This document shows positions 9,291 through 61,496 of a DNA stretch of 64,000 nucleotides, in pieces. Every line of letters begins with the position of its first letter. Within the stretch, counting starts at the first letter, position 1. The stretch lies in the NCBI GenBank assembly GCA_001949185.1, contig BDGG01000001.1, positions 5,073,624 through 5,137,623 on the forward strand. Direction: 5' to 3'. Source of the DNA: Ramazzottius varieornatus (lineage: Eukaryota; Animalia; Tardigrada). Both the position numbers and the translations under genes were made by a program. Under the pieces are notes generated by a model. The model made no database searches, was not told the DNA's origin, and saw only the letters and a list, made by a program, of their open reading frames with translations.

Positions 9291-9438
9291 TCATTACGAG
9301 AAGCTATCACGGACTTCCGTCAATAGCTCCGAAATGAGTGATTCCACTTCTCCTGTCATAACCGACTCGAAATGATCGAAAGTAGAATCACTCATTACGG
9401 AGCTCCTGACGGAGGTCCGTAATGGTTCTCCGTGATGA
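9291..9438. repeat. ~150-bp imperfect palindrome (MITE-like hairpin)
   Basis: Left arm tcattacgagaagctatcacggacttccgtcaatagctccgaaatgagtgattccacttc pairs imperfectly with right arm gaaagtagaatcactcattacggagctcctgacggaggtccgtaatggttctccgtgatga. Confidence 0.7.
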
Positions 9439-28188: not shown

Positions 28189-28664
28189 ATTGCCTAGCAA
28201 GTTAGCAAATACTTTAGGCAGCTCCATTCCCCACGTCTATGTGTGCTGCTACATAGATCTTCCTGTGGAACTTTCACCGATAGGCACAAGCGAGGAACTC
28301 AACAGGCCCGTCCCAGTTCCGTCCACTATTTGGACCTTGGTGGTTCAGACCTACTCGAACTTCACCTGTGTTTCGCTGAATTAATGTTTTTGGGGCAAGT
28401 GGTTTCCCAGCGGACCGAACGTTCTCGAAAGCCACATGTAAAGCTGTAGAGAGTGGTCGGTGAGCTAGATCGAAGCGATTCTCGCAGCGGTTGCGGCCGT
28501 GACACTCTTTGGCCTCTGTTAGTTAAGGTAAACGGGGGGAAGGTAAAAGAGATAGTAGAAAGCTGGCCCACTGAAACAATGTGTCATCGGACACAGCGTT
28601 CGCGCTCCCAATTGGATGTCAAGCCTGAGAAGTTTTTCCGAAACAAATGTTTTCACAAACCGTA

Positions 28665-28862
28665 TAAGCATGACGGGAAATTATGGGGCCGGTAAAAATT
28701 ATGGGACCAGGCGGAAAAGACGGCACAATGGAAACCCAAACGTAAAAAAGTGGCCAAACGTGAACCACTGTGAATCGGCCACGTAAGTACGTGCTTCCGT
28801 ACCGCCGTAGTGAGGTCTGGTCCCATAATTTTTCCTGGCCCCATAATTTCCCGTTGTGCGTG
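28665..28862. mobile_element. Tc1/mariner-type MITE (~200 bp)
   Basis: ~38-bp near-perfect inverted repeats acgggaaattatggggccggtaaaaattatgggaccag / ctggtcccataatttttcctggccccataatttcccgt; TA on both flanks. Confidence 0.8.
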
Positions 28863-29779
28863 TACTAGATGGAACTTTCAACTTTGCAAGTTCGAAAGAA
28901 CGAGAAACGTACGACAATCAAGCATTAAGATATGAGAAGAAAACCGCTCGCAGGTCGAAAATCTCTGCTCTCTGGCCCTTCGCAATTCTGGCCGCAACAT
29001 CGACAGTACCGCTAGCACAGTACACTGCTAATTTCTTTTGGTTTTGCGTTTGGTGTTGAACGAGACTCTATTCTTTCGGCTATTTGTTTATCTTCGCCGA
29101 AAATTTCTCGTACGAATTGGTTTGAGTATTTTGTTCAACGAAGTACATTGCAGGATGGTCACTGTTGCCATCTGATCGTCTGAGCGGGAAGTAGAAAGCA
29201 AGGCTCCCTTCTAACTTCGCACTGTCTCTCTGCATGTTTTCTTCTATTTTCTCATGCAGCCGCGGTTCATGTGGTGAGTGAGCGCTACCCTCGCTATTTG
29301 CGATAAATGCAAATTTTGGTACTATAGTTTCATGGCATTAACCAAGTTCACCGCTGCGAGAGTGGAGTTGGTTAGATGTTTCCAGAAATCTTGGTGCCAC
29401 ACTTTGGCGGAATCAGCCTGACCGAACGACCGAGTTCCAGAACTTCCGCGGTACCCGAATAACCATTGGACAGAACATACATACTGCTCGAATTATTCTT
29501 CTAACTTTACGATTTCTCCATTGAATACCTAGCTGGAACGAAATCTCGGGAAATGAATTACATTTTTCTCGGATCCCTATCCGCATTTGTGAAACAGTTT
29601 TATCGGGTGAATCTCGACTTTGAGCTGGCACACCGAATACCTAGTCTTCTAAAAATCTGATTCTAGATCGGTTCACTGAAAGTCTAAGCCGGGAAAGCAG
29701 TACTTTCAGTAACTAGTCGGTCTAGTCGACTGTTTCTGTTTTCTGCTTTTCCGGCTCATATTTCACGAAACACCGAAAA

Positions 29780-39464: not shown

Positions 39465-40197
39465 CACGTAGGCGATCGCTAGGTACAGGCTTTTGTAGGG
39501 TTTATTTAGCCAACTGACGGTCCCGAGTCGATGCTGACTGGACTCTTATAAAACAAACACATGAACATACTGTAAGTACTTCGTGCAATACTCTAAGCAG
39601 TGTTCTGGCTAGTGCAATTACACCGGATAACATAGTTGGTAAACGCCCAGGATAAGGCATCAGCCTGGTCTTGTGTACAGGCTAACTGGTTGTGTCGATG
39701 CACCTCCCAAATTTACTATCTCGTCGTGTGGACGACGCATAGAGAATCAGCTGCGGTCCCTATCGATCACTTCTCTCATGGATGACGCCATTTTAGATTT
39801 TCCAGCGGACTATTTTGTGGATGAATTGGTCTTAACAAAAATGTTCGTTAAACGTAGACAAAATAATCTACGTTGACGAAAGCGAAAGTGGCGGATGACT
39901 TTTACAATGCAAAAGCTTGAACAGATATCTGTATATTGAGTGACATCGGCTCATACTAAAGTCATCGTACAGTTTCCCGACAAGGAATGATCATTGCCGG
40001 GAATGATAGTACGCAATGATTATTGTGCTACGAGAGTAATCAACGACAGATGGCACTGCAGAAGCTTGTTGGTGCGCTTTTACTGGCGGTTTGGAACGTA
40101 GCGTTCGCTGGTACACGTGAAATCAACAGGAAGATAATATTGCGCGTAGTGGGCGATTCAACATTAACAAGTTAAACACGACGACGTGGCTCAGAAT

Positions 40198-42430
40198 TTA
40201 CTGGACAGTGCTGCTGGTGTTATTCAGAATGCGATGCACTTTACGATCGAAAGAACTGATGAACTTCCTTCGCATTTCTCCCGCAGTGGTCATCTCACTA
40301 ATCCACAGCCGTCATCGGTGCTGGCCTTTTGGTTCCGATACTTTACTACATGATCTATAAGAAAAAATCACTAGTTAGCTGCGAAGACAGATGAAATCCG
40401 CAGAGAAGTAAAAGAGAGTGAAAAAGGAGTAATTTCATACCGTAGAATGCGTCGAAGTTGCCCGTACCGAACAGCTTTGCGAAACCTACGCCCTTGACTT
40501 TCAGCTTTGCTACTTCGATCAACTCTTCCTCTGAAATCAGAGCCTTCCACATCAAATTCTGTGCGTAGCTGTCCATGTCCTTCGCCTTCTTCACAGTCTC
40601 TTTGAGGAGTGACTGTTTCACCCAGATATCGCATTTCTTTGACCCATGGATATCCAGTCGCTGGAAGACTCTGCGGTCGACGGCTCTGGTATCTTTTGGC
40701 AGGAATGACCAGTTGACAAATGGCACTACGATTATAAACAACTAGTGAATGCTATCAGATGCCATACCATCGCACTTTGAAAACCGACGTTTTCCTTACC
40801 TGCTAACTTCGGCTTCCGTATTGCAGCCATTTCACCAGTTTTCTTGAGTAATGCCTCGAACTCTGTGAATGGTAATTTAACCAGATGAATTGAATATAAA
40901 AATAAGGGAATGCGTAGTAGGTTTTCGTTACTTTGGAGTTCTTTCCGATGTTCATCTCGTTTCGCTCGGAACTCCGCTAGCTCTTCTTCGGAGTAGCTTG
41001 GAGTGTCATCTGCTGATACAGTGCCGCCGCCTGTCAAAATCGTCAAGAAATCTTAGTCCATAGCCTCGCTGTTCTTGTTCGACCGCCTCCCATGCACAAA
41101 CCAAAATAACGCTCGGGATACAGTACCGTGCAACGAGCGTGAGCCATCTATGCTGTCGCCTTCGTCATCGACATCTGCGAAGCCACCACCTGCAGTTTAG
41201 AAAAAAAATCTACCCAGACGCCCAATCCGATTTCTTTTCAGGAGTTTGATTTTGGAATTCCTAAACTTAATTTTTATTAAAATGAACTGAGCAATATAAC
41301 AACTGACTACCACCGTACGTTTACGATTGTCCGGATCCTTATCGATATTGTAAGTGTCGTCGTCAAAGTCAGCCGCATCAATTTGCTCTTCCTCTTCTCC
41401 GGATTCATTCGACTGGGCAGCAGGAAACATGACACGGGTGAGAAGATTTGACATCTGCGATCCTTCTGTCTCACTCTCTTCGTTGACGAAAGATTCCATC
41501 CCTGACTCGTCCCCGCTTTCAAGGGAAACCGCTTTCCGAACCGGCGCTTTCTTTGGTCCTGGAGCATGCTCGTCGGCGGAATCGCTGTCTGGAGCCGTAT
41601 CCTTCTCAGAGTCCGATAGACGAGCTGCGCCTGCTTTATTCAATCGGCTGCGGTTGAGTGCTGACCGCTTCACCCGAACATTTTCCGTCCTTGCCGAATG
41701 CTTCATTCTGTGGCCCGCCTTCGGCTTCACGTTCTTTTTCTGAAAAACATAAGCCGCATCAACTTGCGCACTTGCGCAGGCAACAGCCTATTACGGGTTT
41801 GAGGGTTTACGGGCTGAAAAATTTGGAAGTATTTGCAACTGGGAGCGCACTTGGCACCTTTGGAAAGTACCTTATTCTTTGCCGCCTGTTCTTTTGCGTT
41901 CTGTTCGAGAGTGGTGAATAGCATGTTCATCCTAGCTTGGTCAGTGTCCACAGAAATGACAGTTGCCTTTCCGACAGGGTGAGCAGTGTCCCAGTAGACA
42001 CGAACTTTCATCCCAACGGCCATAATTTCCTTGCTTTTGAAAGCGTCGATGAACCGATACTGCGGCAGAATAATGTCCGCACTGATGCTGGTGGGTGGCA
42101 GAAGGTAGTAACTCCCATCGTCGTAGTGGCAAAGACCCCAGTCTGTAAAATACGAATAGTCAGTAAATAGGTTTGTCGCAAGATGTCATACCGTTTGAAG
42201 GTGACAATGGGAAGAATCATACATCCACCATCTTGCGTGTTTTTGAGCACTGTCTTGAAATAATTCGGTATAACCGCTGAAGATTCCGGATCCGATGTCC
42301 TGTAGTCCCTCCGTTTTCGCTTTCGAGTCTGATTGGAAGAATCTATCGTAGAGTGAGCAGGGGATTACAGGAATGAAATAATTTAAATCCAGGAAAGAAA
42401 ACTTAGCCGTTGGTTCCGACCATCACCATG
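40198..42430 (-). pseudogene. CACTA-associated accessory gene with acidic linker and C-terminal BEN-like domain (multi-exon, frameshifted)
   Basis: Divergent from the transposase. Exons include KVRVYWDTAHPVGKATVISV, an acidic tract, and SYAQNLMWKALISEEEL...NFDAFYDHVVKY...MRRKFISSF, resembling the BEN helical pattern. Confidence 0.5.
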
Positions 42431-42662
42431 TGCAACTTGCAGGTTGTTCTGGCTGAACGCTGCTTTATGGCTGTGCGTAAACTATCCCTCCACACTTGGC
42501 ATTGCCACTCTAGACACACACGTCCAAATACCCGTGACTTCTCGAAACTTCAACGAACGCAAAAAGACAGAATGAACAGAACCACACCCGCATTACGTCA
42601 TTGACCGTATCGACATGGTTTATGGTCATTCTTAAGAAACTGAGTTTCCTTTACCCCCATAG

Positions 42663-45426
42663 ATGGAGTATCAGAAGAATACCCGAATTTCCAGGTTAAA
42701 AGCCAAGTGTGCTGCAGCAGCGAAACGCCAGAAGAACAGACCGGGGCAGCCCAGGTCGCAAGCGACCGCGACCGAGAGAGTGCAATCCTGATCAGCTGTC
42801 ACCAGCCCGTGTCGATCAAGAATTGTCGGAAGAAGGAGAGGAAGAGGAGGGAAATGATGCTGTGAACACAACTATAGACAGCAGCGTGGGACAGCTGGAC
42901 ATGGACAGAACAATTGAGGGTATCAAAAGTGATTAATTGACTTATTTGACACTAAGTCTCATGTTATCGTGACCACTAGCTAACACTTTCTTCCTTCTCT
43001 GTAGATATACCAGAGCTTGTCTCGATGGTATCAGATGATCCGAATGACGGCTGGACGCTGAACCAAGTCTGCAGTATGTTACTGTATGTGGCGAAAAGCA
43101 CCGGAACATCGAACGCTGCGCTTGGCAAGTTTCTCAAAGTGATGGCTGTGGTGATTGATGGGAAACGGAGCCTGACAGACCCAAAGAAACGAAGGAAGTT
43201 TCCCCAGAGCGCGAGATCACTGAAGAGCCTGCTTAACATCAAAAGAAACCATTGTGAGAAGATAGTGTACATCTGCCCCTACCAGCGTCAGGTGAGAAAG
43301 AAGACAAACGAGACGTGGGAGACCGAGCTATGCGGTTACGTCTTGCGGGAAGTTGGTGAAGGAAAACATTGCCTGTACCACTGTGATTTGTGCGGTACTA
43401 ACTGGGAGCGAAAAATAGTGGAGAAGGATGGGAACCATTTTGTAATCAACCCAATCCGGAATATCGCCGGAGAAGCGCTACACAAGTACGGTAAGCTGGT
43501 GGATCCTCGTCAAGAACGTATCCCTAGAATTTTGCGTGACGTCACTGATGGAAGCCGATTTCAGCAAATGGACATCCCAAGGTCAAACATAATTTTTCTG
43601 TTCCACGCGGGTGGTGCAGAATTCAGCAAGAGCACAAAGAAGATGTACCTGATATTCGTCCAGATTCTAAATTTGCCGCTTCGGGTCAGACGCTGTGTGT
43701 GGCACCTCGCGGCTGTGTGGGTGGGGAAGATCTCCCCAAAGATCTTGAGTGTTTCTTGATGAACCTGACCCTCCAGCTGCAAGAACTGGACGAGAACAGT
43801 AACACGTTCCTGTCAATACACTGGATTGATGCTTTCGGCGAAGAACACTACTCTCCGGGGTACGTCCACGGTTTCCTTTCTGATTCACCGGAACGCACTG
43901 CCATAAATGGACATTTGTCTCACTCCGCATGCCAGGGATGTATCTACTGTCTGCAAGTTGGTAACACGACCTGAAGAAATAAAGCACATCATATTCTGAA
44001 CCCAAAAATCTATTCTGCTTCAATATGCTAAATGCATCTTTCTTAGGTGGGCGAAAGCATTGCACACAAGATCTCTTACAAATACGTGAAAAACCCCACG
44101 TTAAAATGCCACCAAGATTTTGTCGACATGACTGCGCAGTGGGATACCCTCTCGACCGAATGCCGAAAGTACCTGCTGGATGAAAGGCGAAGGATTCCGA
44201 AGACCTTCATTGGTTACCGACTGGCCGAAGATGGATGCTGTGAACGCCTTTTTCATCGACGTCATGTACAAGGCTTGTCTCGATGGTTCCTGCGGCAGAT
44301 AGTGGAAGGTGGGGAGGTGTTGAATCTAACAAAAAGTGAGATAAAACAGATTGACACATTATGGCTCACTATTGCGGTTCCGGGTCACGAGTCAAGAAAA
44401 ACAAGAAGCATCGCCCAGTATAAGAACATGAAAGCCCACGAGCTAAGATTTTTCATCCAGCATGGCGCACCTTACGTCACGAAAGACATAGTCCCGGAAG
44501 ACTTCCACACTATCCTCTGTCTGGCCAGTAGAATAGCATGGCTATCCACGCAAGACTCAATTTCCGAAAAAGATATCAGTATCGTTGACAGACTAAGCAA
44601 CATGTTTTTGGGGAAATTCGAACGGTATTTCGGAGAACAGGAAATATAATTTTCGGTTCATCTGGTTCAACACCTGGCTCTTTCCCTCAGAATTCATGGA
44701 CCTCTCCAGAACGTTTTCTGCTATGGACCTGAGAACGAGATTGGGGTAATTGGTCAGCGCATTCGTGCCCTAAATAACACCACGAAGAGCATAATCAACG
44801 ACTTCCGCATTCTAGCAGAATGCGCTGTGATGGTCGAAGAACTAGTCAGCAATGAATCCGTTCCTCAACCGGTCACACATACCGCCAGATCTATTATGGG
44901 GATGACGGAATCCATTTTCTACGCAAGAGTACCTTCGGGAATATGTCGGCTGATTGGTAATGCAGAAAAGATTCCATCCAAGCGGATATCCCAAGCCGTT
45001 ATGGCATACGCGGACCACCACGGCTTCATATGGGTGGATGATAAAATTCATCTATTTAAACGAGCTGTGGTTGAGGCAGGAATTTCGGTAAGAACAAGGA
45101 AACACAACGAGGCCTCCTGCCGAAATGGAAGCATCGTCTTTGAAAGGACAGGGAAAGTCATTGCCGTCAAGCACATAGTGGCCATACTATCAGTCGACAC
45201 CGGATCCGTCCTGCAAACCTTAGTGTTTGGTAATTTAATGCTTCGCAATGAAAAAGATTTCTGCGAAAATAGATGTGTGAAAGTCAAGCACGTTTACGAA
45301 GTACAATTATCGCGAGATTATGTTTTGGTGGAGACTGCCAGCATCACAAAGCAGATGGTCATACTCGGTGGTAGCGATTCATTGTTCGTTGTGAGTCCGC
45401 CGGCTAACATTTTCCCAACAACGTAA
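42663..45426 (+). mobile_element. CACTA/EnSpm (Tnp2/Transposase_21-type) transposase pseudogene
   Basis: LRDVTDGSRF; FHAGGAEFSKS...ILNLPLRVR...WVG; SDSPER...SACQGCIYC; MKAHELRFF; SVHLVQHL...HGPLQNVFCYGPENEIG. Frameshift near 43740, premature TAA at 44647-44649, and the expected first catalytic Asp reads Gly. Confidence 0.85.
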
Positions 45427-46201
45427 TTAGATTAATTCCTTCGGTACCTGATTAAAATTTTGCGTCTAGACTTCGCCGTAGGTACCGTAATATTACAATA
45501 CTTTGGCCGTTTGTCCGTTATTTGAGTGTCCGACCGTCTTATGTACATGGCGATCACTGTATGAGTCAAATCGAGAAATTAAATTGATCTTAACCGTATC
45601 CACATACAGATACGCTCAAGCATCACGCACTACCAAACGTCAACTACAGTACTTATAGCAGTAAGAGCTACCCAAGTTCATGCAATAATAGCGCTCAACT
45701 TGACCCCATCTTGTAGCCATTACCTGTGCCTTACACGAGCAAAACACTGGAGAACCGCACAGCAACACTCAGCACTATGCCTACTGGAACTTCTACCAGA
45801 CAGACCTCTAGTTGTAGGAGACAGTCATACACCATGGCTAGTTCAACCGCGACGGCATCAGAGATATATGCGTGATGCGCATATCCCGTTAGAAGAAAGG
45901 CCATAGCTAGCTATAGACGCAAGACGGTGGCCTTACGAAAGACAATAGCCGTCTTGGCCGCAAGAAGGGAGAAGCTTTGTTTTGATAAGAGTTGATACAC
46001 GACCATAAATCATTCTTCGAACTCGCTTTGCATTTCGAACGGACAGACTAACATCTGTTGCTAGTGCACTCATATGAGTTTTCATCTGTCACTGAATTTG
46101 GTAAGGTTTCAGCGCTAGATATTATTGTATCACTTCTGACCATTACGAAATATTGTTCGAGTATTGTATGTACACCAGGAAGATTTTAATTACTGTTGGA
46201 A

Positions 46202-48231
46202 ATGGGAGAAAAACCTGAATGCTCCATATGTTTGAGGGAGTATCTCCCAATTCCGGCGCACAGACCTGCTGCTTCACTGTGTGGCCATTTCCTGCATCAT
46301 TTGTGTCTGGAGAAATTACTGGCTAACGAGGATAAAAGTACTTGGAAATGTCCATCTTGTCGTGGTTCTATTATAGCTTCGGACGTTCGGTTATTGTATG
46401 GAGATATGCCCAATTCCAAGCGGAATTCAGACGTGATGTCTTTTCAAAGGATGAAGTTGAAAGATTTATCCAGTTTGCTGTAGATCAACGTGTCAGGTTG
46501 CGTTTGGAAGAACTGGACGTGAAAAGGAGTAACAAGTGTACCCGTTCCCGTAATATCTCTCTTCCTGTGCCAGATGAACTTTTTGAGGTCGAAGAAATTA
46601 CGTTTTCTAAATTCCACGGCGGAATACGTCATTATTCCGTCAAGTGGAAAAACTGCCTCGGAGAAGACTCGTGGGAGCCAGCCTATGGTCTTCGGCACTG
46701 TATGAAATTGGTTCGTCGGTTTAACCGAAAGAAAATACGCGTTGCACCCTCGGACCTTCCACTATTTCCCTTATGGTGCGTAGCCTATCACCTTATTTTT
46801 GCAGAATATTTCGGGTGTCGGCGAATGATTCTACCCAGGTAGTTATCTTGAGTGGCGCACCTTTGCATTGTCACCATGCGTGGGGTTGCGCGACGTGGGG
46901 AAAACAATACTGCCGGACTGCCAAGTGGCGCACGTTTACTTGGCTATTGGCCGAAAGCCTACGCCACTTGGCATAACAATTCCACGCGGATTCATTTGTC
47001 GACATTCCATTTTGTCCGAAACAATCTCAACTACAGTTCGATTATACCCGATGTTGCTGACATTAGTATTTTTTCGTAAGCGACCCTGAAACTTTTACAG
47101 AGGAACTGGCCACACGCACTGAGGAACCTGAGGTTTCTTTTCCGACCACCGACCACATCACTCCCGTTCTTCCTCCTGTTCCGCACCCCGAAGCATCCTC
47201 CTCGTACGCTCAATCTGCCAGTCCTTCTACCTATGGTCGTTCTCCAGAGCCTGTTGAACCTTCTCCTACGGACTTGACCGGACATCAACCTTCGAACTTG
47301 CGTCTCGGTGCGCTCGATGTCCCTTCGCACTCCTTCCCAACGCCGCAGAACGTGACAGCTTTTGGACCGGTACTGCTGGACGTCGGCCAAGAATATAACT
47401 CCACACCACTGATTATGCAGGCCAGCACAGGTTTGTACACTCCAAGCAGAATATGTGTTTGTGTCTACCGTTATCAAATATCGTTTTCGGTTATAATGAG
47501 TAATTTACAACCTATATGGGCTATTAGTCGCTTTGGCGCCGGGTGAGCGCTGGTCATGATCGGANNNNNNNNNNNNNNNNNNNNNNNNNNNNNNNNNNNN
47601 NNNNNNNNNNNNNNAGAGCTTACCCGGCCACAAAGACTCCAAAATGCCACGCTGTGACACTGTGTACTTTGACCACTCCCTTGGAAGCGTGGTTATTTGT
47701 GGTGCTTCTCACGCTGGCTGCAGATAAGCTCGAGTTCGAAACCCGACCTTCATTAATTTTTTAACATATGTTGTGGCAATACAACACTATAACGCTACCG
47801 AATTATCGCGCACTCAACCACGTGATCAGTGATCATCAGAAACATTGTTGTTTTTATAAACCTGAAAACTGTTTTATTTTATAGACACAACGCCACTGAT
47901 TCCTCTGTCAGCCGTACCCAATGCTGAATCCAAAAGTCACAGAAGGACAAACACAGCTGTTCGGCTGCAGCTCGCAAGTTTCTTACGAAATGCAGTGGTG
48001 GTCGACAAAGCCGGAACTCTGTCCCTTGACGAGGTGAACAGAAGACTGCGAAGCGAATTCCCGGAAGCACTGGTCAATTCGCAAGACAGGAGAACGCTAG
48101 CCCGTTTTCTTGCTGAAATCATGAAGAAAGCCTTTCCCGAATGCAAAAAAGGTCGAGTGAGAACAGGTCCATCAGTCGACCGTAAACAACCAATTTTTTA
48201 CGAAAACTTGCGATTCGTAGCTCCCCCATAA
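46202..48231 (+). pseudogene. RING finger + chromodomain gene, probably continuing through a Pro/Ser-rich exon to an RFX-like winged-helix exon (frameshift near 46440; spans the gap)
   Basis: RING CSIC...CGHFLHHLC...CPSCR; chromo FEVEEI...HYSVKWKN...DSWEPAYGLRHC; exons 47101-47430 and ~47886-48231 join in phase 1 to give LASFLRNAVVVDKAGTLSLDEV...LAEIMKKAFPECKKGRVRTG...IFYENLRF. Confidence 0.55.
47565..47614. other. Assembly gap (50 N)
   Basis: Run of N. Confidence 1.
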
Positions 48232-50879
48232 ACTTTGAACGTGATTGGATCCCATTGGTCCATTACATTCCATATTTTACCGTAGCGTTTGCACTGGCGG
48301 ATAATATTATTTGTTAGCTGTAACGCCACCTGCTGGGCTTTTCTTTTCACTGCCGCGTCTCGCTGTATGGTTAAGGAGGAGACAGCTGGGGAAGAAAATT
48401 AAATATTGATGGAAAGACCGTCGGTTGAGAATTTAAGCTTGCATGACTTTAGATCTCAGCAAAACTCAGACTTGATAAGTATTAACTGAAAATGAGTTCC
48501 ACTACAGTGGTACGTCATTAAGGATTTTGTGGGAATGATTAATCTGTCTCCACTGAGTCATTTAGAGGAAATGTTGTCCGCAATAACTTCAGTAATCCGC
48601 ATTACGGCAAACAGAAGTCGGCTGATTTATCAGCGATGACCGCATTGTTGAGTTCTGCGGGAATGTGATCGATAGGGGGTAATAGGGCGTGTGCTAATAT
48701 TCGGAACCGTTAAATTCTGCGCAACGGGGCTTGGACCCGTGAATGGTAAGACCCATTGCAATCCCTGAGCGTCTTAAACGCTTGAATAGGGAAGTTCACT
48801 TCCAACAGAGGAATTCGATAAACGAACGTTCAAACGAAACGGATGCATTTAGAAATGTTTTTAACCAGGGGTGGTCATGGGGACTGAAGGGTGTAAGTGG
48901 GCGAGATTATGAAGTGGGTCCGAGGTTGGAAGTCTTGGGGCTAAACACTCAACTAGCAGTCAGCACGTGCGCTGATTTTGTTGCCATAAGACCTCCATGT
49001 GGGGCCCACTTCACAATCTCGCTAGAGCTCGGAGCAGCTTGAAAAATCGACGCCGTGGATGGTTTTTGTTTTTGCTACAAACCCATGCTGTCTTCACACT
49101 GTGGAGTTTATGGTTTGGTGCGCGGCTTCACGTTATGACGCCCAAAACTGAGAAACCACGCTATACCACGCGGCGAACGCAATTTTTAAAATTTTTTTCA
49201 GAATTGCATTTCACGAAATGCAGGTCACCAAAAGCATCTTCTTTTGAAGCACGTTCTCGTATTGGTGAACACATTCGCGAAATCGCTGAACATTCTTTCA
49301 GGCGGCGCACTCGAGGCTCGTATACAGACGTCATTGCTAGTCCATGTAGCTTTTAACTACGCGATGGAAAGCTAAGTCTGTTGCCCTGCGCGGTCCGTTG
49401 CGGGCTGAGATTCACGCTATGCTGCGCTGATCCACACCTACTGCCAGTGCGATTCGCCCTGATCCATGCGGAGCGAGCCGCGTGGATCAGCGTGGTACCG
49501 CGTGACCATGCTGCTACGAGCTCTAATTATCTCGCCCACTTACGCACTTCGGTCCCTGTGGCCACCTCTGTTTTTAACATGCTCAAAACATTTTTGAAGG
49601 CAGTCGTTTCGGGTTCGTTTATCGAATTTCTGCTGGAAGCGCAACTTCCTAATGTGTCAAATATAACTAAGATGTGTGTGAAGTTATCAGTGAAATCGGA
49701 AAATTTCATCGTATCGGCCAAATCTGCCTACCATAAGTCCAACTTGTCGTTAGTCATGACTTTGAGCATCGGAAAATGACAGGCTTATGGCATGGATATG
49801 GGTCTCGAGATTGGGAGTGTTGAATGATACTTCATAGGTTAAGACCGGTAATTTTGCGGGCTTTCGTTACAAGGACATCGACACCCCCCGTCGTACATTC
49901 CCGAGTTCGTGTGGATCGTGATAAAACTATTGGTTTATCTTGACCATCATTCTGAACATTAGCAGAAAGATTCCAGCATGAGCTATCACAAATAAACTTG
50001 CGACGACGACACAAGCGGAGTGAAAGCAGAAATCAACTGAGGTTTTACTAAATGTGACAGTATAAATAAACACAGCGGCAGTTCTGCCAGTCGGGAAGAC
50101 TTAATGTGAAGGAATGGTTCTTGACGTCCAGTTTCTAGTCCTTTCGGTCGGCACGGAATTCCTTCTTAGTTGTGGACAGCAAACACGCTCCCTATATTCT
50201 CGCAACTGTCTCAAGTATGGCTTCCTTCTGTCTTCAGTGCGAAGGGTGGACATAGTAGCATGCCAAATAGCACAAGCTCGGTCGGGTTCAAACCGACTTC
50301 GAGCCAGACAAACCTGCTGGGCTTTTGGAGTGTGGAGGTCCAAAGTCCTCTAGTCATAAGACGAACGAGAACGATTCTCGATAACGCTCTTACTCACCAA
50401 ACATTACGGGCCACGGCATATGCTAAAACCAGGACCTGGACTGGATCGGTGGATCCCTGTATCTGGATTCTGTATCTGGATTACGCCTGGATCTGTACTC
50501 TGTATCTGGACTATCATATTTTAAAACGGAGGTGACAGGTGAATGACAAAATTTTTTTTACAAGGATCCACCGGAAAAAATCCTTAAATAAGACAGACAG
50601 AAATTCAGAAAACTGAAAATTCAGAATAAATTTTCAAGCGAGGGGTACGGGTATGATCCATAAAACATTAATGGTAATAGGAAAATAATAATTGATAAAT
50701 TGAAGAGAAAAACTTTACCAGATATTTAAAACTGTCTCAGATGAATTTCAAACCGTTGTAGACAGGGCGTCTGTCGCGTCTTCCCCCTCTCCTTCCCGTC
50801 TTTCTTTTTCCTACCTCTGGGTACGCTTTCACCATAGCATACTTGACCGAGTTCTGGATCGATTTCTGATCAGACAGGC

Positions 50880-51281
50880 TCAGCTCCGCGTAGTTCTTTT
50901 ATTTGAAGAAGGAGACAGCACGGGCGCGGTAAAAGAAGTGGGTGGCGGATTGGACGCAGGAGAATGCGCATACGTAAACATGTCGCAAAGCCGATTATGT
51001 TTTGTCTGCAGTTTCGCCTTCCTAATATTCCTCAGATATCGGTCGACAGTTTCAACTGAGTTTTGCAAATCTTCCGCAATTTGCCAGCTGTTTTCTTCCG
51101 GACCGTAATTCTTCCACTTGACAAGGTACTGCTTTACTCCGTTTTCCGTCCTGTCTGCGATTATTCCGTCCACTTCATATTCCAAAGGACCTTGATCTTC
51201 CACTGGAACAACGAGGAGAGGGGGCGGCGGCAATGAAATTCTTGGTAACTGACGTTCTTTCACTGGCACAACAAAGTCCAA
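50880..51281 (-). CDS. Chromodomain ORF/exon inside the MULE
   Basis: LPPPPLLVV...EYEVDGIIADRTENGVKQYLVKWKNYGPEENSWQIAEDLQNS; aromatic cage Y/W/Y present. Confidence 0.85.
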   Translation of the reverse strand: MDFVVPVKERQLPRISLPPPPLLVVPVEDQGPLEYEVDGIIADRTENGVKQYLVKWKNYGPEENSWQIAEDLQNSVETVDRYLRNIRKAKLQTKHNRLCDMFTYAHSPASNPPPTSFTAPVLSPSSNKRTTRS

Positions 51282-51613
51282 GGGTCACATTTTCAAATGA
51301 CAATATTTTTGATCAAGTTCAGTAAGAAATGCAATTACCGATGTTAAGACCAAACGTAAAATTCGGGCGCAGAGTGAACTTCGACTAAATGAGCGCATTA
51401 AGCGCGATCGGATTTACCAAGGAACGAACAACACGAAATGACAGAATACTGGTCGGTGGTTGACCGTGGCTAATCTCGCCCGGTTAGAAACGACAGTCAC
51501 TACCCTGTTGTCAGTTCGAAATACCGTGGCAACACCTTTTCGCCAAAGTCATACAACGGGTGACTGAAGACGCAGAATTTAGACAAAAAACTTTACTGTG
51601 GCTAATTTCGAAC

Positions 51614-54600
51614 TTAGACCTTCTTTCCGGTGCACTGCTTCAAAAACTTTTTGTGGCTTGGCTCAAACGATTCTTTGTCCTCGGATCGAATCACGATGTC
51701 GAATGGGTTGAATTCTTTGTCGTGCTTCTCAACGCATTTTGCGTTAGCGTGGAAGTAAACCGGAGAAACTTTTCCATTTTGTTCTTGATTGTTCTTCTTG
51801 AAGGATCGTATCATCTGACTGACGACGACGAGGTCTTTCGGGGGACTGGGAGCATTACCGTCCAACCGGAACTCGGTATGACAACCAAAGCACTTTTTCA
51901 CACTTCCGTGACAGCCAGACAGAAAACGAAGCTCGTAAGTGAATGGCTCGACAGCTGCAACGGAATTCTTGGTTCGTTTCTTCGCTGTGTTGTCTGCGGC
52001 TGCTCGATAAGCAAAGGCTTTACCTGAAACCGACCAGCATCACACAATCGTTCCGGTACCATGAGGTCAGAAAAGATGAAATACCTTCAGCAGAAGTTAA
52101 AGTTGAAATTTGCGACGTCTTTTCGGTAGTTCCAAGACGGCGCTGGGTCCGGTTGTGACGTTTTAGTCCAGTGCCTTTTGCAAGCTGGAATGACGCAATC
52201 TTGTCTAACGGGGCCTCGGACTTCTGTTTGTTGTGCCACATTGCGTATGCCGCGCTGACCTTCTTGACGGCAGCGACAGCCAGCGCGTGTTGACATATCT
52301 TCCCAATTCTGTATGGAAGACAAGTCTTTGCGTCGCAGGCTACCTGTCCGGTCTTCGGGTTAATGGTAACGGTATGAAATTGATTTCTGCCGCTGTGACT
52401 GGCCACAATGAAGCACATGTCGTCATCACCCGGCGCATCGGTGATATACTTCTTGTTGTCCATCAAAGCCCGCGCTTTCACTTCGAGCTGAAGACGCTGT
52501 CCACGTTGTATATTCGCAAAGCCATCGAGCAGTGACTCTTCAGAGTCAACAGGGGAAGGTCGAGGGGAGGAAGCTTCGGGCAGAGTCTTCTGAGTGAGCT
52601 CGAAAATTTCGCCCTCCAAAGAATCCTGAACGATAACCACGTCTACTTCCTTCTTCAACACAGGCTGGGTGTGTATCTTTCTCAGAAGCTTCTTTCTGTC
52701 TTTTTCCGATTGCCTAATTAAAGACTTAAAATCATTGACTTTCGAATTTATCAAAGGCTTGAGCTAACGAAAGGGACGAGACTACCGCCTGATCACTTAC
52801 ACCCGAAAAAAATCTGTGGCCCGGACTTTCAGATGGTTGTATTGGTCGAGCAGATCCATTCCAGGTGTTCGGTCGATCAGCGTCTCTTCAATGTCCTTTT
52901 CTTGTTTCTGCACGAGCTTCTGCATTGCCTCAACAAAGGGAGTGAGCTTCATCTTCTATTTGCCTGTCTGCCGCTTTGTTACGGAGTTCATACATTCGTT
53001 TGCGTTCTGAGTATAGACGTCCAAGTCAGCTGACAAGCGATCCGTGTCGACAGCGACATGCAGTTCTGTATCAGGTGTTCTTTCTTCTCCTTGAAGTACG
53101 AGACAAAGTCAGTGCCTTCTTCCATGATCGCAGTCCATTTCTCATACAGAGCACCAGCAGCAGTCTCGAAGTCTCCCCCTGCACAGTCCGCCAAACCAGC
53201 CGTCTTGTCTGTGCCTTGCTTCTTTCCGAAGATGTCTTGAATGACCTGCATAGAGACGTCAGGTTTTTCCCCAAGGGCACGAAGCTTCTTCTCTATGTTA
53301 TCGTGCATGTGTATGTCACAGAGAAGATGGTTCGCCGCTGGAAAGAGATCTTTGGACGGCTGGTACAAAGCCGGATCACCATCAGTGCCATACACCTTCA
53401 AGTCTACCAACTCAGAACAATGGTTCTTCAGCGAAGCTACCATCTGCCAGTACGTCGCCCGCGACTTGTCTTGATGGATGAAGATAGCACCTGAACATGA
53501 ACAGGTTAGCTTCACAAATGTTTTTGATAAGCAGTGGACTATCAATACCGAAACTCCTTTAGTATCATCGTTAATAAAACTTACCGAGCATGACTGGATG
53601 ATCCCCAATATTGGTAGATCTCGACCGAAGAAGCAGATGTCGATACGTCACAGCAGTAACGAAGAACTTTCCCACGTTGAACATGGTGTCGACGCCAAGC
53701 ACAGATAAATTATCAGCATTCGTGCAGAATCGTACCATGTCATCGAGCTGTCTCTTTGTTGCGCAGAAGATGAAGAGCAATGGGACTGCGTGGATTTCGT
53801 TGACGAATCTGAGAGACGGAAAGTCGAATTCTTTCTTGCATTTTTCCTGAAGTCCCATGATGTCATCTACTGGCTGCGCGTCTTGAGTTAAATTTCGGAT
53901 TTGTTTCGTGCCGGTTGGGATACTAGCGAGGCTCATTACTGTGTAGATCTCATCGCGATCCTCTTCAAAGGTCTTCATAGCGATGCCGCGGTCTAGGCTC
54001 TTTAATGACTTCTTCACGCTTTGATAGCTTCGACTGTAAGGCTTTGATCCGTGTCGACGGTTACCATGCTGTGAAAGTTCGAAGGAATGTGCCCCCTCGT
54101 CAAACTGGTAATACAGAAAGGAGTAATCACACTTGGCATGGCTGTCGTCGTGAGCGCGAATGTACACTCGTCTGAAGTCTTTGGACGATTTGCAGATCCA
54201 AGTCTGTCGAGTGAACCAGTATCCCTCTTCATCAGCGTCGTACTCTTCCTTCGTTGCGCTCATCAATTTACCTTCGGTGCGGGTGAAATAGAAGGAGCGC
54301 GGACCGTGTGTTGCAGAATATGCTCCGTTATCGTCGGAGAGAACATCACGCAGATCAGTCAGCGACTTCTCATGCATGATGAACACACAATGATCTTCTG
54401 GTCTAAATGGCGGATCTTTCGGGACAGGATCGATTTCCAAATGGACGTCCAGTAACAGCTGGACAGCATCAAACGTGCCGACTGTCTGGTTCCTTCCTCG
54501 ACTGAAGCAGTCTGTGTTAGCGTACTTGCAAATATCCCAAGCTACGTCTGTAAACAAGTATCAACAGTCACTTGTTAATTTCTGAACGTGGTTTGTCTTG

Positions 54601-54958
54601 TGAATCGGGTAATCGCAATTATCTAATTATAAGTTCGCAATTAAATTTCTGATGCGAAGCTAGTCTTAAACCAGAACCGGCTCACCTGAGCTCATCAACG
54701 TCCTCTGGATCGAGGTTGAACGATTTCTCTGCTTCCGGTGTCTCCTCGTGTTCGGAACTGATGGTCTGGTAATCATCGGTTTCTTTGAATGCTGCCTTCA
54801 AATTCCTCCGCGCACCTTGATCCTCTTCGTCACTGCTGTCGAGCGTGATGACGTCTTTACTTGGCTGCTTATTTCCGGAGATTGAGAGTACGGTTGACTG
54901 TCTTCCCGCACTTCCCGACAAGTACGCGCTCAAGTTTCTTTTGAAGCCCCGATCAATC
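51614..54958 (-). pseudogene. MULE transposase with SWIM finger and C-terminal Cys/His finger (multi-exon; frameshift near 53015)
   Basis: LGVDTMFNVG (D1); YGTDGDPAL (D2); HLLCDIH; YTQNANECMN (E, in a shifted frame); SWIM CDAKTC...ICQHALAV; CFGC...YFHANAKC. Confidence 0.85.
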
Positions 54959-56459
54959 TAGAAGACCATCAGACCATCACATGTTGAAATTGGGACTATG
55001 GAGGTTATCGTGTTCGTATTATGATAACTAATTAATCCCTTACCGCTTCAAACGACGATGGTTTTTTAATGGGGCTGTTTGGCAAACTGCTTTCACTTTC
55101 GGAATTATACGGCACAAGCAAAGGAAATCTGCAACCCAAAAGCGTGATGGTCATTATTCAATTTGTTTTCATGATCTGATATTTTTCTAATGGCTTAATG
55201 GCTAAAACGCGAATGTCCACTTACGATGATTTCTCTCTGCTGTCGTTTTCGGCCTCATTTCCGCTGGATGACTCCTCCATGACCCAAAAGTGGCGACCAA
55301 GAGGCAGAATAACACTCACGAAAATATCGGATTACGTTTCAAATAACAGTATCAAAAAGACGGAAATGAGGAACAAAACGTCGAACGTTATTGCATTTGT
55401 GCATCAGATACTGATGAAGCAATATCGCTATCGTGTGAGCGCCAAAAGATTTCTCATTTAAGGCTGGTCCTTCACTTTGTCTGTAAAAAATTGTCTGTAA
55501 AAAATCACATTGTCTGTAAAAAATCTCCCTGCAGCTTTGTTGTTCTGTTGCAGACTGGCGCCCTTCACGGTCTCAACATTAGGAGCGTGATAAGCCGGTC
55601 GAGTTGCATCGGTGGCCGTTACTGCGTAGTTATGTGAATTCACGTACAGAGACAACATTCCATTTTTGGAGAATATTATTCGGAAAATTTTCGGCTGCAT
55701 ATTGTATTTTTAATTTTTAAAATGTACGTCAGTCCAGATACAGAGTACAGATCCAGAGGAAATCCAGATACAGGGATCCACCGATCCAGTCCAGGCCCTG
55801 GTTTCAGCATATGCCACGGGCCACCGTGTAAAAGGTTTTGCATGAAATATTACACATATGCAGAGTAAGAAGAATACTTTGTGATGACTTTCGAATAACA
55901 ATTCGCTAACAGAGCTGGTACAGAAAACATTGCCTGCTACCGCACAGGCAGTAAACGAGCTGATTACTGTTGTGAAACCCTGCGGTCGCAGTTGGGCACA
56001 GTAACTGGAATAATCTGGCCTGATCAGATTTTAATAAACCTTTTCGCATTATTCCTCGTCCGCACAGTAGAGACACGAAAAAGTCATTAGATTGCCACCA
56101 CATGGTCACAGCCGCCAAACGGTCTTCTGAGAGCTGTAGCACAACACAGATCGAATCTCTCGTACGATGTAACGTTATATGCCCATAATGGGTTAACCCA
56201 CTAGATAAGATAGTGTAGGGTCACTGCAGTCATCTTGCCTTCAATGACGTGAAAACTGTAATGGAAAATTATAAGTCACAATATAAAACTAGTTGTGAAT
56301 GACCGCGAGGAACTTTGGAAACTGATTGTTATCCAATAGGACATGTCCTCGCAGTGAAGCTGCCGGGTGCAAAAAGTGAATTAGCCGATATCAAGATCCA
56401 AAGTTAGAATCGACAGTTAAAGGGCTCCACTAAGGCCGAAAAGACTAAGCGAGAATCAT

Positions 56460-57020
56460 TATTAATCATTGGTCAAGTGGCACCATGTGCGACCCCTTAC
56501 TTTCAGTGAGGCTGGGCTCTCCACGTAAGTCTTTCCATCTGACAACTGTTTCAGTCCCTCTTGGATACGCCGACCTCTATCCCTAGCCACCACCATCCTG
56601 CCTTTGTGTGCGGGCTTGATGACAATCGATGGATCGTTTCGTAATTGTTTCAGTGCAAGTCGTTCCCCGGAAAACAAGCTGTCAGTAGTTTCTTGAGGCA
56701 ACGAAGCCTCGATCCTCGTAAAGAAAGTCTGTTCTTCCACTTCTAGGAACTCTGCTAACTCGGCCCATTTCCGTTAGAATTCGACCGTGTGGTTCTTGGC
56801 CACATTTGGTGTTCGGAATCTGGCTTTGACTCTTTGGTCCACTTCTTGATTCCTTGGGGTTTACGGAACAAGTCATCATGAGCTTGGGTGTTCGCAGGGA
56901 CAAGGGCTTTTGGTACGAAGCTCAGGCCTTTTCCAAGCAATTTCTTCTGACGCCAAGTCTTGCCATGTCCAGCACATTTCCGCACTGCAGACGCTTTAAC
57001 TTTCGCATTCGAATATATCA
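56460..57020 (-). mobile_element. Degenerate Penelope-like retroelement fragment (N-terminal to RT)
   Basis: LLGKGLSFVP and ERLALKQLRNDPSIVIKPAHKGRMVV...LKQLSDGKTY match the PLE LxKGLxFxP and IKPADKG motifs; broken frames. Confidence 0.7.
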
Positions 57021-60000
57021 TGCCTTCTCTGCACTATGGACAAGAGCAGTGTTAGTTTCGTTCGCACGTAATTTAAGACAGATGGATCTGCAGATTCGCT
57101 CGCCCACATTGACGATGTAATTTATAACATTCACGTGGCTGAGGTTTCGCAGGTAAACAAAGTTTAGTTGAGCTGCTTGCGCATGTTGAAGCGACAATCA
57201 ATGGCGTGCTTGTTGTCGTCGATTCTAGTCGCTTGAGTTATCTGTCGTGCAGTGTTACCGACTAGTGAACGAAACATTTGTTGTGAAGTTAAGACTATCA
57301 GATTCGTTTTTGGGGTTGGTGCGCGATACGGCGTGCTGTTTCGTCTACGTTGATATTTAGTATTTCTAAACGGCCGTGTTTGCTGCCGGTAACTGACTAG
57401 GAGCTGGTGTTCGCTGTGCTGACCTGGTTTGTCGGTCTGACTCTTCAGCTATTCGGCGTCGGTAATAAGCAGATGGTAGGAAAACTTCTCCTGGTGAAAG
57501 TGCAGAAACTTGCGGACTAAGCGTGTCATTTGAAGTTCGGTACACTGACGATGGCGTGCGCCGGCCTTTTCCGTTGCGGGCTGTAGTGGCTGGGTAGAGT
57601 GTCAGTTGATCGACACGGACGGGAGATGTCGTTCCTCCAGTATGAACGTTAGAATCCTCCCGGTTGGCTCCAAAATGTCACGGGTTAGAATCGGTGACGG
57701 TACCACGTACGACACAACGTTAGGCAATAGGCATAGGTTTATTGGTAAGTAAGAGGCTAGGACTGAAGTGTAGCACGACAGAACGAGTTGGAGAACGGAA
57801 ATAACAACTGGCGCACTGCGTTGTAAGCAGTCGCTCAAATAGCAAGTGCTAAAGACAACAGCGGTCCAACCGGTGGTGTCAAGCGGTATTGTAGATATGC
57901 ATTACAAGAGATCAGTAATTAACCTCTCCGGTACGAAATCAAATAGCGATACATCATCAAATAGCGAAAGAAACTAGTACACCGTCCCGCTACTTGTCAT
58001 ATGCCGCATGCTAGTACGTGAAGACGTATTTGGGGCGGAACGGCTGCCGGCTAAATTATCTTGGCTTTGATTCCTCACCAGACATACCTGGATAGTCTGA
58101 ATACCATCCCGACTGTCTCTGACCATCATCAGGTGGAAAACATTAGGCTTATTAAGATTAATTGGCTTGTAGCCAGTCTTCCTGGTAGAAGATGGATTTC
58201 GCCAGCGGCTGTCACACGGATCTCTTTATTAAACGTTCAAAACCGAAGGTTCATTATTGTGGTGCTGATTTACGATGATGAGACGGACTTTTGATAAATT
58301 CCAAAGCCCGATATGTCGACAGTAAAATATAATGTGAGTGAACCAAAAGCAAATCAGCTCCGATACTGTTTGGGATATCTTTATAACGTTAGCGCAAATC
58401 GTCTGAGATATCCACAATTAGTTTACTGGATCTCAAACTCCACTAAGTGTAGGTAGTCTCCGTGGGCAACGTGGTTCTTTCAACGGACGAAGTAACAGCT
58501 GAAATGAAGTTTGAAGCGAGCCAAAAAGATCGATCGTTGCTCTGGAGTCTGGAGGCTTCTTAGGGGGAGTGGTGCTTTTGCTGGTAGTGGGCATGGACGC
58601 TGGAAGTTTCGGAGGTGCCGCAGATGTTTCATCGGCGGAGTTAGTCCACAATGCATCACCACCGTCCGCGGCAGCAGTCACAGGCTTAGTTAATCAACCG
58701 ACTTGGTCAAGCCAAACAGCCATGGGGCCGGAAAATTTCAATGTGGAAAAACAGCTGGGGAACAGAAATGTTAAGCCTGACGTCACGGCTCGAACCAGGC
58801 CGTGTGCATGGCAGTGTACATAACCTGCACACATTGAACCGTCAAGTGGGCGAAGCCGGGTTAGACTGAATTGACCAACCCGACTTCCAGTCGATAGTTA
58901 CATGACGAGCACTACATACTGCCACCAATTTTTTTCCACATCGGCTTTTGCGTAGCGGCATGGCTGAAGCCACAATCTCTCCAGATTTTAATCTTCCGTC
59001 CCCGCACCGAGAATACGGAGATTTTCGAGATTTTTCTGTCGTTGAAGAGCCTAAAAGCTCTACTGTGATTCAGCAAGGCAGCACAGAATGTAAAAAAGGA
59101 CCTTTGCTGAGCAATCCAGAATCACGTCTGCCGATATCTCCAGGTAATGAACCGCGCAGCACGGAGAATGATTTCCGGTCAAGTCAATCTCGTTCGGTTC
59201 TGGAAAGTTATGGCAAATGACATCGGTCGGCACATGTGGGATATACTGTAATCGTCCGGTAAGTCCAGAACGGTGATGGTTGGGAAGACGTGGTTGGGAT
59301 GGAAAGGCGAAGTTCGGAAGATCATCTTTGAGCAGCTTTCTCTGACACTCACAGCTGGCCACACAGTCCAGTTCCAGCAGCTGACTTGCAACAGTCACTC
59401 ACCAGCCTAGCTATGAGAAGGTCGAACATTGCTGCATTATTCCAACCGATTCCAGGACGAATAACCTGATCGTAGAAGAAAGAGGAGCAAAGCACGAAAC
59501 GGATATTCCAGATCACCTCAAGCGGATCTTACTTCTAGCCACACACAAGGCACCCACTGCGTCGACGCGAGTAGTATTAATATTTGAGTTGTGAGTCCAC
59601 TCGACCTAGGACGGCGGGGGCAAATAAAATGCCAACCGATCACGTCATGCTTTGATAGGGTATCGATCAACTGATTAAGGTAGTGATGGAATTTTCTCGC
59701 CTTAAAAATATTTACATACACGACGCTAGAGTTATTAGGAAAAACCTGCGACCTATCGGCTTAGGATTATCCACGAAACTTCCAAGCAAGATACCGCAAG
59801 GAAAATTATGTTTCTATTGTTCGATAGTTACAGTAGCGAAATCTAGCGAGCCTGAGAGCCTTCCCAAACTACAACAGAATCTGTTCGCCCTAGTTCAGCA
59901 GACAAAGTGTGTTTGCGCTTGGAGAAATAGACGTCCGGGTGCGGGGGGTCCCCTGGAGGTAACCCCTGGTTACCGTGTTGTAAGAGGGGTGACTCGTCTG

Positions 60001-60490
60001 TGCGAACAAGTTGTGCGAGGGTTGCCGCCTCTTGACCATCACTTCTCCCGGGCCACTCTGTACTCACCGCCCAATGGCGGAACCTTCCATGTCAAACGTA
60101 CGAGGAACCGCGCCGGTTGAAGCGAGCTGGTTTGTCAGGCTTACCCTAATGAAGTGGCGCCAGATCTTACGATGAAATCCGCCTGTTGATATGGCCGGGC
60201 TCTTCAGGGCTGCCCCGCCAAACTCGCGCATTTTCAGAAACAATTTTAATTTCTCGTTTGAGCCTGTAAGTATGCCAATGTCCAGTTTGGGATTTTGGAT
60301 TTTCGAACGAATCTGAAGTTCGTTTTTGAAACGGATGACCTGGGAATTTTTTTATGAATTTATGAAGTATAAGATGGATATTAAAAATTAATCTGAGAAG
60401 ACAGAAGAACTCTTTCATCTTCTGTCTTGTCCATTAACATCATGGCGGTATCTTTAGCTACTACCTACAAAAGAAAAAGTAAAAAATGGT

Positions 60491-61090
60491 TCATGGTTCT
60501 ATGTGGATGAAGATCGTGTAAAGATTCACACCTGGAAAGAGATGGCGGAAAGTGAGTCCTCTTTTGATCCAGTCTAGTTCATCCCTAATCCATTTCCGAA
60601 GGTCTCCGACATTCCCACCCAGCTGCCACTTCTTCTGGAATAATTTGCCGCCCCTTTTCCTTCTGGCATCGGTCGTTTCTCGATCGTCGGCAGTGGACCG
60701 GAGAGTGTATGTGCCGGCAAAGTTATGGTCGTTGTACTTCTTGGTCGCCGTGGTGAGTTGACGCTGAGCCCTCACCAACTCCGCTCGAAATCCCTGTTTT
60801 CGCTTGATATAAAATGCAGCGATCCATTGACGGATGTTTCCCTTTGCCTCCGAGACTGACAGCATCTGAAGCCGTTCCAGCCTGTCGATTTCGGCAAACC
60901 AGCCGACAAGGCCCCAGAATGCTGTATCAGCACGCGATCTTTGGCAATTTCTCTGCAAGAAAAGTAGTTCATCGTTCAGCGTTTCGTATTTTTGAGATTC
61001 AGGTTCGTACGCCCTAGCGATCGGTAATTTGACTAAGCATCTACATAACGCTTTATGGGCAAGTTTCACGACATTGCCAATGGTCTAATA
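60491..61090 (-). CDS. Hypothetical protein exon (orphan)
   Basis: ~190-codon open frame bounded by plausible AG/GT sites; no recognisable family. Confidence 0.35.
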
Positions 61091-61496
61091 TGCAGACAGA
61101 TGACGATAAATACAAATTGAATGTTAATAAGTAAATTTTGAGCAAACTTACTGGTACACCCGAAGCGCAAAAATCCAGTGGAAAAAACAAGAGGTGGAAA
61201 AAACCATAAAATAACCATGGATATCTGCTCAATCATGCCCCACGTGTCGTACTTCAGTTATGAGGGAGTTTTTCTGTGACTTTTGCAGTTGGAGGAATTT
61301 CTGGAAGAGAAATAGAGCACACGCTAATTATATACTGTACAGAGTCAGCATACGTTTTCCCGATGAACACTTAAATCTTAGTATGTATACAGAGCAAACA
61401 ACTCGGCTCTCATTGTTGTCCAAAGTGGCGCATCTTTGCACCCAAAATCGCCAAGAACGTGCGCCAATTAGTAGACCGACCTGGTCAAGCTAGTTT

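Follow-up and report, generated by a model that had tools for sequence, protein, structure and literature searches.

The MULE element and its transposase

The window, the whole stretch of 64,000 nucleotides of the tardigrade Ramazzottius varieornatus analysed here, contains a Mutator-like element (MULE) with two genes on the same strand, a transposase and a separate second open reading frame (ORF2) that encodes a chromodomain and a likely winged helix. The element with both terminal inverted repeats (TIRs) occupies 50415-55815 (5,401 bp). It is flanked by a perfect 9-bp target-site duplication (TSD), ACGGGCCAC, at 50406..50414 on the left and an identical copy at 55816..55824 on the right, so that the exact limits proposed in the initial annotation were borne out. 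The left TIR (about 98 bp, 50415..50512, plus strand) has internal CCAGATACAG-type repeats, the right TIR lies at 55731..55815 (minus strand), and both open with GGCATATGCT, at 50415 and at 55815. The inverted arms measured 62 nt (92%) and 43 nt (93%), and the pair aligned by blastn (50415-50526 with 55815-55715) at 79.8% over 114 columns (E 1e-24). Three copies of a subterminal direct repeat, TGTCTGTAAAAAA, are located at 55472..55524 (plus strand), a zone of which 30 nt are missing from other contigs of the DNA run, and CCAGATACAG is present five times in the TIRs and subterminal DNA.

MULEs are defined by an 8-11 bp TSD (PMC6446971). The exact 9-bp duplication, the long TIRs (~100 bp) and a DDE transposase with CxxH (GVDT, GTDG, CDIH and NANEC motifs) all agree with this class. 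The window copy is not autonomous, its transposase frame having two frameshifts and one stop, and it is not a Pack-MULE that has lost the transposase, as a full-length, though broken, transposase lies inside the element. A curated library already lists the family as ramVar1-655 / ramVar1-664 (DNA/MULE-MuDR, 5,555 / 5,556 bp; Peona et al. 2024, PMC11071193), with a TIR length of 98 bp (Table S1) and a 9-bp TSD, as in the window. The first 400 nt of the two consensus entries match the two ends of the element by eye. The window element is thus a copy of a curated family and is not itself new. In the supplement file compared, the comment cells of these entries are empty, ORF annotation is absent and "chromo" occurs 0 times (PMC11071193). 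The window copy is 154 bp shorter than the consensus and broken; it is a decayed member of a low-copy MULE family of R. varieornatus. Contigs also contained two internally deleted derivatives of the family, with joints 50556-55230 and 50900-55508, and the contigs at 50453-50841, bounded on either side by TIR sequence, probably represent a short derivative of the element.

The transposase pseudogene has five exons (51614..54957, minus strand; start codon not established). Intron 1 (54685-54548) was skipped in contigs of run X17 and intron 2 (53584-53491) in those of run X20, both runs being only guessed to be RNA; introns 52802-52764 and 52084-52024, on the same strand, are putative. The motifs are located at 53696 (GVDT), 53389 (GTDG), 53320 (CDIH) and 53006 (NANEC). 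The Pfam MULE match was weak (E 0.031 for one window frame). Gene model RvY_01778 of R. varieornatus, which reproduces the frames of this locus, matched PF10551 with E 0.004, below the cut-off; 3/81 transposase homologs passed this cut-off and many had weak matches. The closest named relative was P0006 (BV898_18992, Hypsibius exemplaris), 39% identical, and the relatives P0005 and P0155 were 60% identical. A transposase scan of JGI metagenomes gave 308 pattern matches and confirmed no relative. The first exon of RvY_01778 is drawn from the 56462-57033 region (minus strand), outside the TIR. That region contains broken frames with IVIKPAHKG and LLGKGLSFVP, which we take to be Penelope/DIRS-type reverse-transcriptase N-terminal motifs, and is without Pfam support.

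Relative to other contigs of the DNA run, which comes from the same organism, the transposase of the window copy is short by 5 nt at 54530 and by 1 nt at 53025, and it has a stop at 52958 where the contigs have a sense codon. A less damaged copy of the family seems to be transcribed, because an X17 contig holds the 5 nt that the window lacks. The window copy itself is dead, with stops and frameshifts in both genes.

ORF2, a chromodomain gene probably borne by the family

ORF2 (50737..51290, minus strand) begins 324 nt past the transposase stop, on the strand of the transposase, and is a pseudogene in the window. Frame 50883-51284 (minus strand) matched the PF00385 chromodomain with E 1.1e-12 and 48 bits, the cut-off being 25.1. 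A PPPP tract and a chromodomain with a Y-W-Y cage extend over 51030..51230 (minus strand), with PPPP at 51230-51219, EYEV at 51182 and VKWKNY at 51122. When mouse HP1-beta (1ap0) is aligned with it, the Y-W-Y residues fall opposite Y, W and F, and this three-residue aromatic cage is common to the window copy and the proteins P0002, P0003 and P0004. The initial annotation had described a downstream, co-oriented chromodomain with these features, and that description was confirmed. The cage is whole, as stated there, but the ORF is not, and in this copy has three lesions, 1) a TGA directly after the ATG at 51290, so that codon 2 is a stop, 2) a frame-shifting 133-nt deletion near 50919 and 3) a TAA at about 50900. 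The C-terminal half of the likely winged-helix domain (50737..50918, minus strand) is out of frame. Pfam detected no chromoshadow domain (PF01393) in P0002-P0004, so that the domain content is not that of an HP1 protein, and no SH3_Tf2-1 in the ORF2 proteins. Moreover, whole ORF2 starts 36 residues ahead of the chromodomain and is not a fusion to an integrase C-terminus.

ORF2 is whole in two gene models on two other contigs, RvY_12020 (227 aa) and RvY_16855 (228 aa), which are 96% identical to each other. A relative, the ENA protein P0003 (224 aa), is 62% identical and has an open frame with both domains. The protein search with the chromodomain frame gave two matches among nine candidates, RvY_12020 and P0003, with RvY_16855 within the first cluster. 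All three proteins start at the residue matching ATG 51290 and end at the residue matching 50740, and the whole ORF2 versions are single-exon by alignment. Two further gene models, RvY_11272 and RvY_10858, have only the winged-helix part. The matches of two protein searches with ORF2 included neither a Hypsibius relative nor a host parent gene (a genome-wide search was not part of these). An ORF2 scan of JGI metagenomes gave 589 pattern matches and confirmed no relative, and supplements of PMC9145152 (2 files) and PMC5531438 (12 of 27 files) contained none of the RvY identifiers.

That ORF2 is a gene apart from the transposase follows from the transposase homologs. The window transposase ends at its own stop, 51614, after a C-terminal Cys/His domain, and the homologs end with the same domain (858-959 of 966 in P0009; 809-916 of 919 in P0019). 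No Chromo match was found in the 81 longest of 150 homologs, and no match to an ORF2 profile in any of the 150. Splicing of the chromodomain onto the transposase at a pyrimidine-rich stretch was ruled out, since the homologs end at this transposase's stop and the ORF2 models begin at ATG 51290. As weak evidence, a search for long fused forms gave one match among 2,546 candidates, RvY_01778, the model of this very locus.

ORF2 likely belongs to the MULE family rather than being a one-off capture, in which case the whole models would lie inside TIRs. A 1,204-nt contig (DNA run X2) spans the last exon of the transposase into the chromodomain, with a sense codon replacing the stop of the window. 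Contig depth was 85-88 over both genes versus 23.5-26.8 in the flanks, a rough hint only. By hand arithmetic, the 5,555 bp of the curated consensus equal 5,401 plus the net 154 nt of the listed indels (a list short of two indel rows), the 133-nt ORF2 deletion included, and the last codons of ORF2 are, by eye, within the first 400 nt of that consensus (PMC11071193). Run X11 covers ORF2 and looks like DNA, because its contigs run through introns; in four runs guessed to be RNA the chromodomain part was without contig cover, which is evidence neither way.

Identity to P0003 was 37/52 (71%) in the chromodomain, 58/88 (66%) in the winged helix and 19/52 (37%) in the linker. This concentration of conservation in the domains is, as far as sequence comparison goes, the pattern of a constrained two-domain protein. 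Two objections foreseen by the initial annotation are weakened. The chromodomain is not limited to the window copy, being present in two whole near-identical models on other contigs and in a 62% relative, and domain-concentrated conservation argues against neutral evolution. The initial picture of an animal transposon with its own histone-mark reader needs amendment. The element is indeed an animal MULE, but its ORF2 is a pseudogene in the window and the protein joins the chromodomain to a winged helix instead of being a lone reader.

The last 85-90 residues of ORF2 are, judging from a predicted structure, likely a winged helix, a domain that the initial annotation overlooked. The model of the P0003 C-terminal domain has three helices and a poorly predicted tail. 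Comparison of this model with 48,161 solved chains by VIA-align gave top rows (50) with Z 4.6-6.8, the best of which had Z 6.8 and a root-mean-square deviation (rmsd) of 2.8 with 69 aligned, and an RFX row Z 4.8 and rmsd 3.5, also with 69 aligned. Most of the 50 rows are presumably winged helices (LYAR, Scc1/Rad21, Fur, Polycomblike, ORC, forkhead and RFX). The predicted fold class would resemble the RFX DNA-binding domain and the Pox_D5 C-terminal winged helix, as do Atlas features of the corresponding domain of a neighbouring transposon described below, for which the Atlas scores were 0.96 with Pox_D5 clusters (14-17% of whose members bear the family) and 0.94 with a cluster of Pox_D5/RFX type. 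RFX differs in having about 10% identity to the ORF2 winged helix, and a Pfam match is absent. At E<=0.001, Foldseek found nothing similar to the whole-protein model, for which the top rows were chromodomains, or to the C-terminal model in PDB and viral structures. A profile search of solved structures gave two rows at chance level, and the ESM Atlas held no usable match for P0002 130-227.

A Gypsy-tail origin of the chromodomain is plausible on sequence. A proline run shortly before EYEV was present in 7/9 matches with a Gypsy SH3_Tf2-1 tail, 0/7 of HP1 type and 3/9 others, counts taken from matches drawn by a profile that itself held the motif. In a chromodomain tree (38 rows, 53 columns; all chromodomain rows from the two protein searches, among them none from Polycomb, Mavericks or tardigrade host chromodomains) the ORF2 domains formed one starred clade, which joined six Gypsy-like rows at 82/84, unstarred and not significant; the chromodomain of the neighbouring transposon had a long branch and no placement. 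Capture from a retrotransposon, as the initial annotation had suggested, is thus a plausible reading, supported by the PPPP-EYEV layout. Maverick integrases also carry chromodomains (PMC10799480, PMC8502044) and Mavericks are listed for tardigrades, making these integrases a possible second donor.

The neighbouring CMC/EnSpm-like element and the surroundings

The neighbouring transposon is a CMC/EnSpm-like DNA element at 39758..48677, with a 13-bp TIR, CCCTATCGATCAC, and a 3-bp TSD, GGT. It is whole and has CCC termini, and a scan of 2.8 million position pairs, as made here, would yield about 7e-4 such TIR/TSD pairs by chance. The CMC/EnSpm group is defined by a short TIR and a 2-3 bp TSD, as found here. 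The transposase-like frames (42980..45426, plus strand; DUF4218 E 0.017) contain a DxPxR..H..GCxxC motif that we take to be of CMC type. The compared part of the curated library (PMC11071193) lacked this TIR.

Accessory frames follow at 46202..48231 (plus strand), in the order RING finger (from 46202, E 6e-8), chromodomain with an F-W-C cage (46582-46731, E 2.9e-6, above the cut-off), Pro/Ser linker (47079-47429) and winged helix (47953-48231); an assembly gap of 50 N is located at 47566-47615. Of the window's 1,405 frames, just two contain a chromodomain and just two a winged helix of this kind, one each in ORF2 and one each in this element. The winged-helix frame of the neighbour (47953-48228) aligned to the ORF2 tail better than 2000/2000 shuffles for P0002 and 1999/2000 for P0003. 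Copies of the RING, linker and winged-helix parts recur in RvY_16819 and RvY_02818 at 90-96% identity, and hhalign of ORF2 with RvY_16819 gave a probability of 29.7 (E 6e-4). A single RING-chromo-winged-helix protein can only be inferred, because both models skip the chromodomain and the RING and chromodomain of the window are in different frames.

We consider it doubtful, though possible, that MULE and CMC/EnSpm elements of tardigrades, two unrelated superfamilies, share a stand-alone chromodomain plus RFX/D5-type winged-helix gene. Such a gene would have been put together from parts of retroelements or Mavericks and exchanged between the superfamilies as a portable reader-tether module that would steer insertion or lift the element's own silencing.

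A divergent spliced gene is present inside the CMC-like element at 40400-42400 (minus strand). Its last exon, presumably BEN-like and without a Pfam match, shares 49% identity with the C-terminal part of RvY_11272, the N-terminal part of which is the MULE ORF2 winged helix. The MULE copy behind RvY_11272 may lie within or next to a further CMC-like element.

Between the two large elements, at 48790-49649, there is an inverted-repeat pair (72% over 132 nt), probably a miniature inverted-repeat transposable element (MITE). Frames with DUF7869 (24969-27429, plus strand; E 2.6e-15) are possibly another transposase, and frames at 59659-63271 with RCATRWNS and AASFLDP, which have no Pfam match, presumably belong to a hAT-type transposase. 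Self-comparison revealed palindromic stretches at 35641-35905, 28662-28865 and 9291-9438, likely small non-autonomous elements. Ordinary host genes occupy 11805-22272 (MATH-BTB-like and galactosyltransferase-like by eye, Jagunal, and an ankyrin-patatin phospholipase).

Possible roles of ORF2

MULEs are already known to carry extra ORFs that act on chromatin (VANC, SET), and integrases to carry chromodomains. What seems new is their combination in an animal MULE as a separate chromo plus winged-helix gene, both domains of which recur in the CMC-like element next to it. Element-encoded DNA-binding helpers also include the Myb-like ORF2 of Harbinger. Like the window MULE, mudrB, Mutyl mutB, VANDAL vanB/vanC and SET-bearing Phytophthora MULEs have a transposase and an extra gene inside the TIRs, and some of these extra genes act on chromatin (PMC6446971, PMC12730594). 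However, these two-ORF MULEs are from plants, yeast or oomycetes, whereas the window MULE is from an animal and its ORF2 couples a reader with a likely winged helix; none of them is listed with a chromodomain, and the main text of PMC6446971 has 0 occurrences of "chromo". The integrase chromodomains of chromoviruses (Ty3/Gypsy) and Maverick/Polinton elements have a whole cage like that of ORF2, the Gypsy tails share its PPPP-to-EYEV layout, and a role in target choice has been proposed for them (PMC6839031, PMC12477314, PMC10799480, PMC8502044). TnpA of En/Spm is, like ORF2, a separate element-encoded DNA-binding helper but, unlike ORF2, is built of tri-helical motifs of the helix-turn-helix type, arranged in tandem and derived from the transposase; in the survey text of that paper, "chromodomain" and "winged" occur 0 times (bioRxiv 10.64898/2026.08.24.746577). 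A full-text literature search found, in titles and abstract openings, nothing that describes MULE or CMC elements with a chromodomain gene, although Repbase, Dfam, subscription papers and survey supplements may list such genes.

Our tentative reading, to which we give somewhat less than an even chance, is that whole ORF2 is an adaptor between element DNA and methylated histones, tethering the element to silent chromatin at insertion. Whole copies of the family likely encode the transposase and a separate chromo/winged-helix protein of 227-228 aa. The chromodomain would bind methyl-lysine, because its aromatic cage is whole, and most likely H3K9me2/3, because its sequence and fold matches are HP1/Chp1/CDY/CBX-type and Gypsy-tail chromodomains. 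The winged helix may bind the TIR or the subterminal repeats, in which CCAGATACAG recurs. The adaptor would then tether the excised element to silent, repeat-rich chromatin and bias insertion there, by analogy with the chromodomain of chromovirus integrases, which does likewise in cis. ORF2 is a separate gene and would therefore act in trans on defective copies and internally deleted derivatives. Beyond the anatomy, we infer every step of this mechanism. It is consistent with the position of the window copy among the CMC-like element, the MITE-like repeat and retroelement-like remnants, and with the Gypsy-type PPPP-EYEV layout of ORF2.

Several observations weigh against the adaptor, 1) the winged-helix model is poor, with a mean predicted local distance difference test score (pLDDT) of 56.5 and a wing under 50, 2) a Z below 8 can reflect merely a common arrangement, 3) the C-terminal domain of ORF2 matched no Pfam winged-helix family, 4) the location of RvY_12020, RvY_16855 and P0003 inside MULE ends is presumed, 5) the window copy and the other contigs of the run differ in a neutral-looking fashion, with 22/27 coding differences changing the residue and two being stops (from 40 of 160 difference rows), 6) selection against genic insertions would account equally well for a single insertion in a repeat cluster and 7) MULEs are described as favouring genic regions, the opposite of heterochromatin targeting (PMC6446971, PMC6839031).

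The same anatomy would suffice if ORF2 regulated the element or countered its silencing, as an animal equivalent of VANC or TnpA, a role that we regard as possible but rather unlikely. The winged helix would find the copies of the family, and the repressive mark would be covered by the chromodomain and closed to host HP1/Polycomb readers, so that the transposase is transcribed. VANC is defined by sequence-specific binding to its own element and loss of silencing, and separate element-binding regulators are known for both VANDAL (PMC5735166) and Spm/TnpA (bioRxiv 10.64898/2026.08.24.746577). Such a factor is in keeping with the short motifs repeated in the TIRs and subterminal DNA, with the skipping of transposase introns 1 and 2 in the X17 and X20 contigs, guessed to be RNA, and with the absence of a chromoshadow domain, as the mark could be capped without spreading. 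Likewise, the RING finger of the neighbour fits removal of host factors better than targeting. However, no activation or demethylase domain was seen in ORF2, and its Gypsy-like tail suggests an inherited targeting role.

A passenger role is improbable for ORF2, in which a captured piece of a retroelement or of the host would have been copied with the family in the manner of a Pack-MULE and would now be drifting. The three lesions in the window would fit, as would RvY_11272 and RvY_10858, which hold only the winged-helix part, and the open frames of the RvY copies prove little because these copies are young (96% identical). Against drift, P0003 keeps an open frame of 224 aa with the same start and end and both domains at 62%, the linker being far more diverged; transposase relatives are found at the same distance (P0005 and P0155, 60%), which does not imply linkage of P0003 to either. 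Moreover, no host gene of this architecture was among the matches of the two protein searches. Least probable, and quite unlikely, is a self-limiting repressor that binds the element, anchors it in heterochromatin and damps transposition and host damage; the low copy number of the family and the pairing of a DNA-binding domain with a repressive-mark reader, the layout of host silencing adaptors, favour it, but Pfam found no recruitment domain such as a chromoshadow in ORF2.

Chromodomains in mobile DNA are known as integrase tails of Gypsy and Maverick elements, and chromatin-directed accessory genes of cut-and-paste transposons are known in plants, fungi and oomycetes. A separate gene that pairs a reader with a DNA-binding domain in an animal MULE, together with the similar pair in the CMC-like neighbour, would carry both ideas over to animals and indicate that one module can serve different transposases. 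RvY_12020 and RvY_16855 are small natural products with which the reading of histone marks by animal DNA transposons, whether for target choice or for escape from silencing, would become directly testable.

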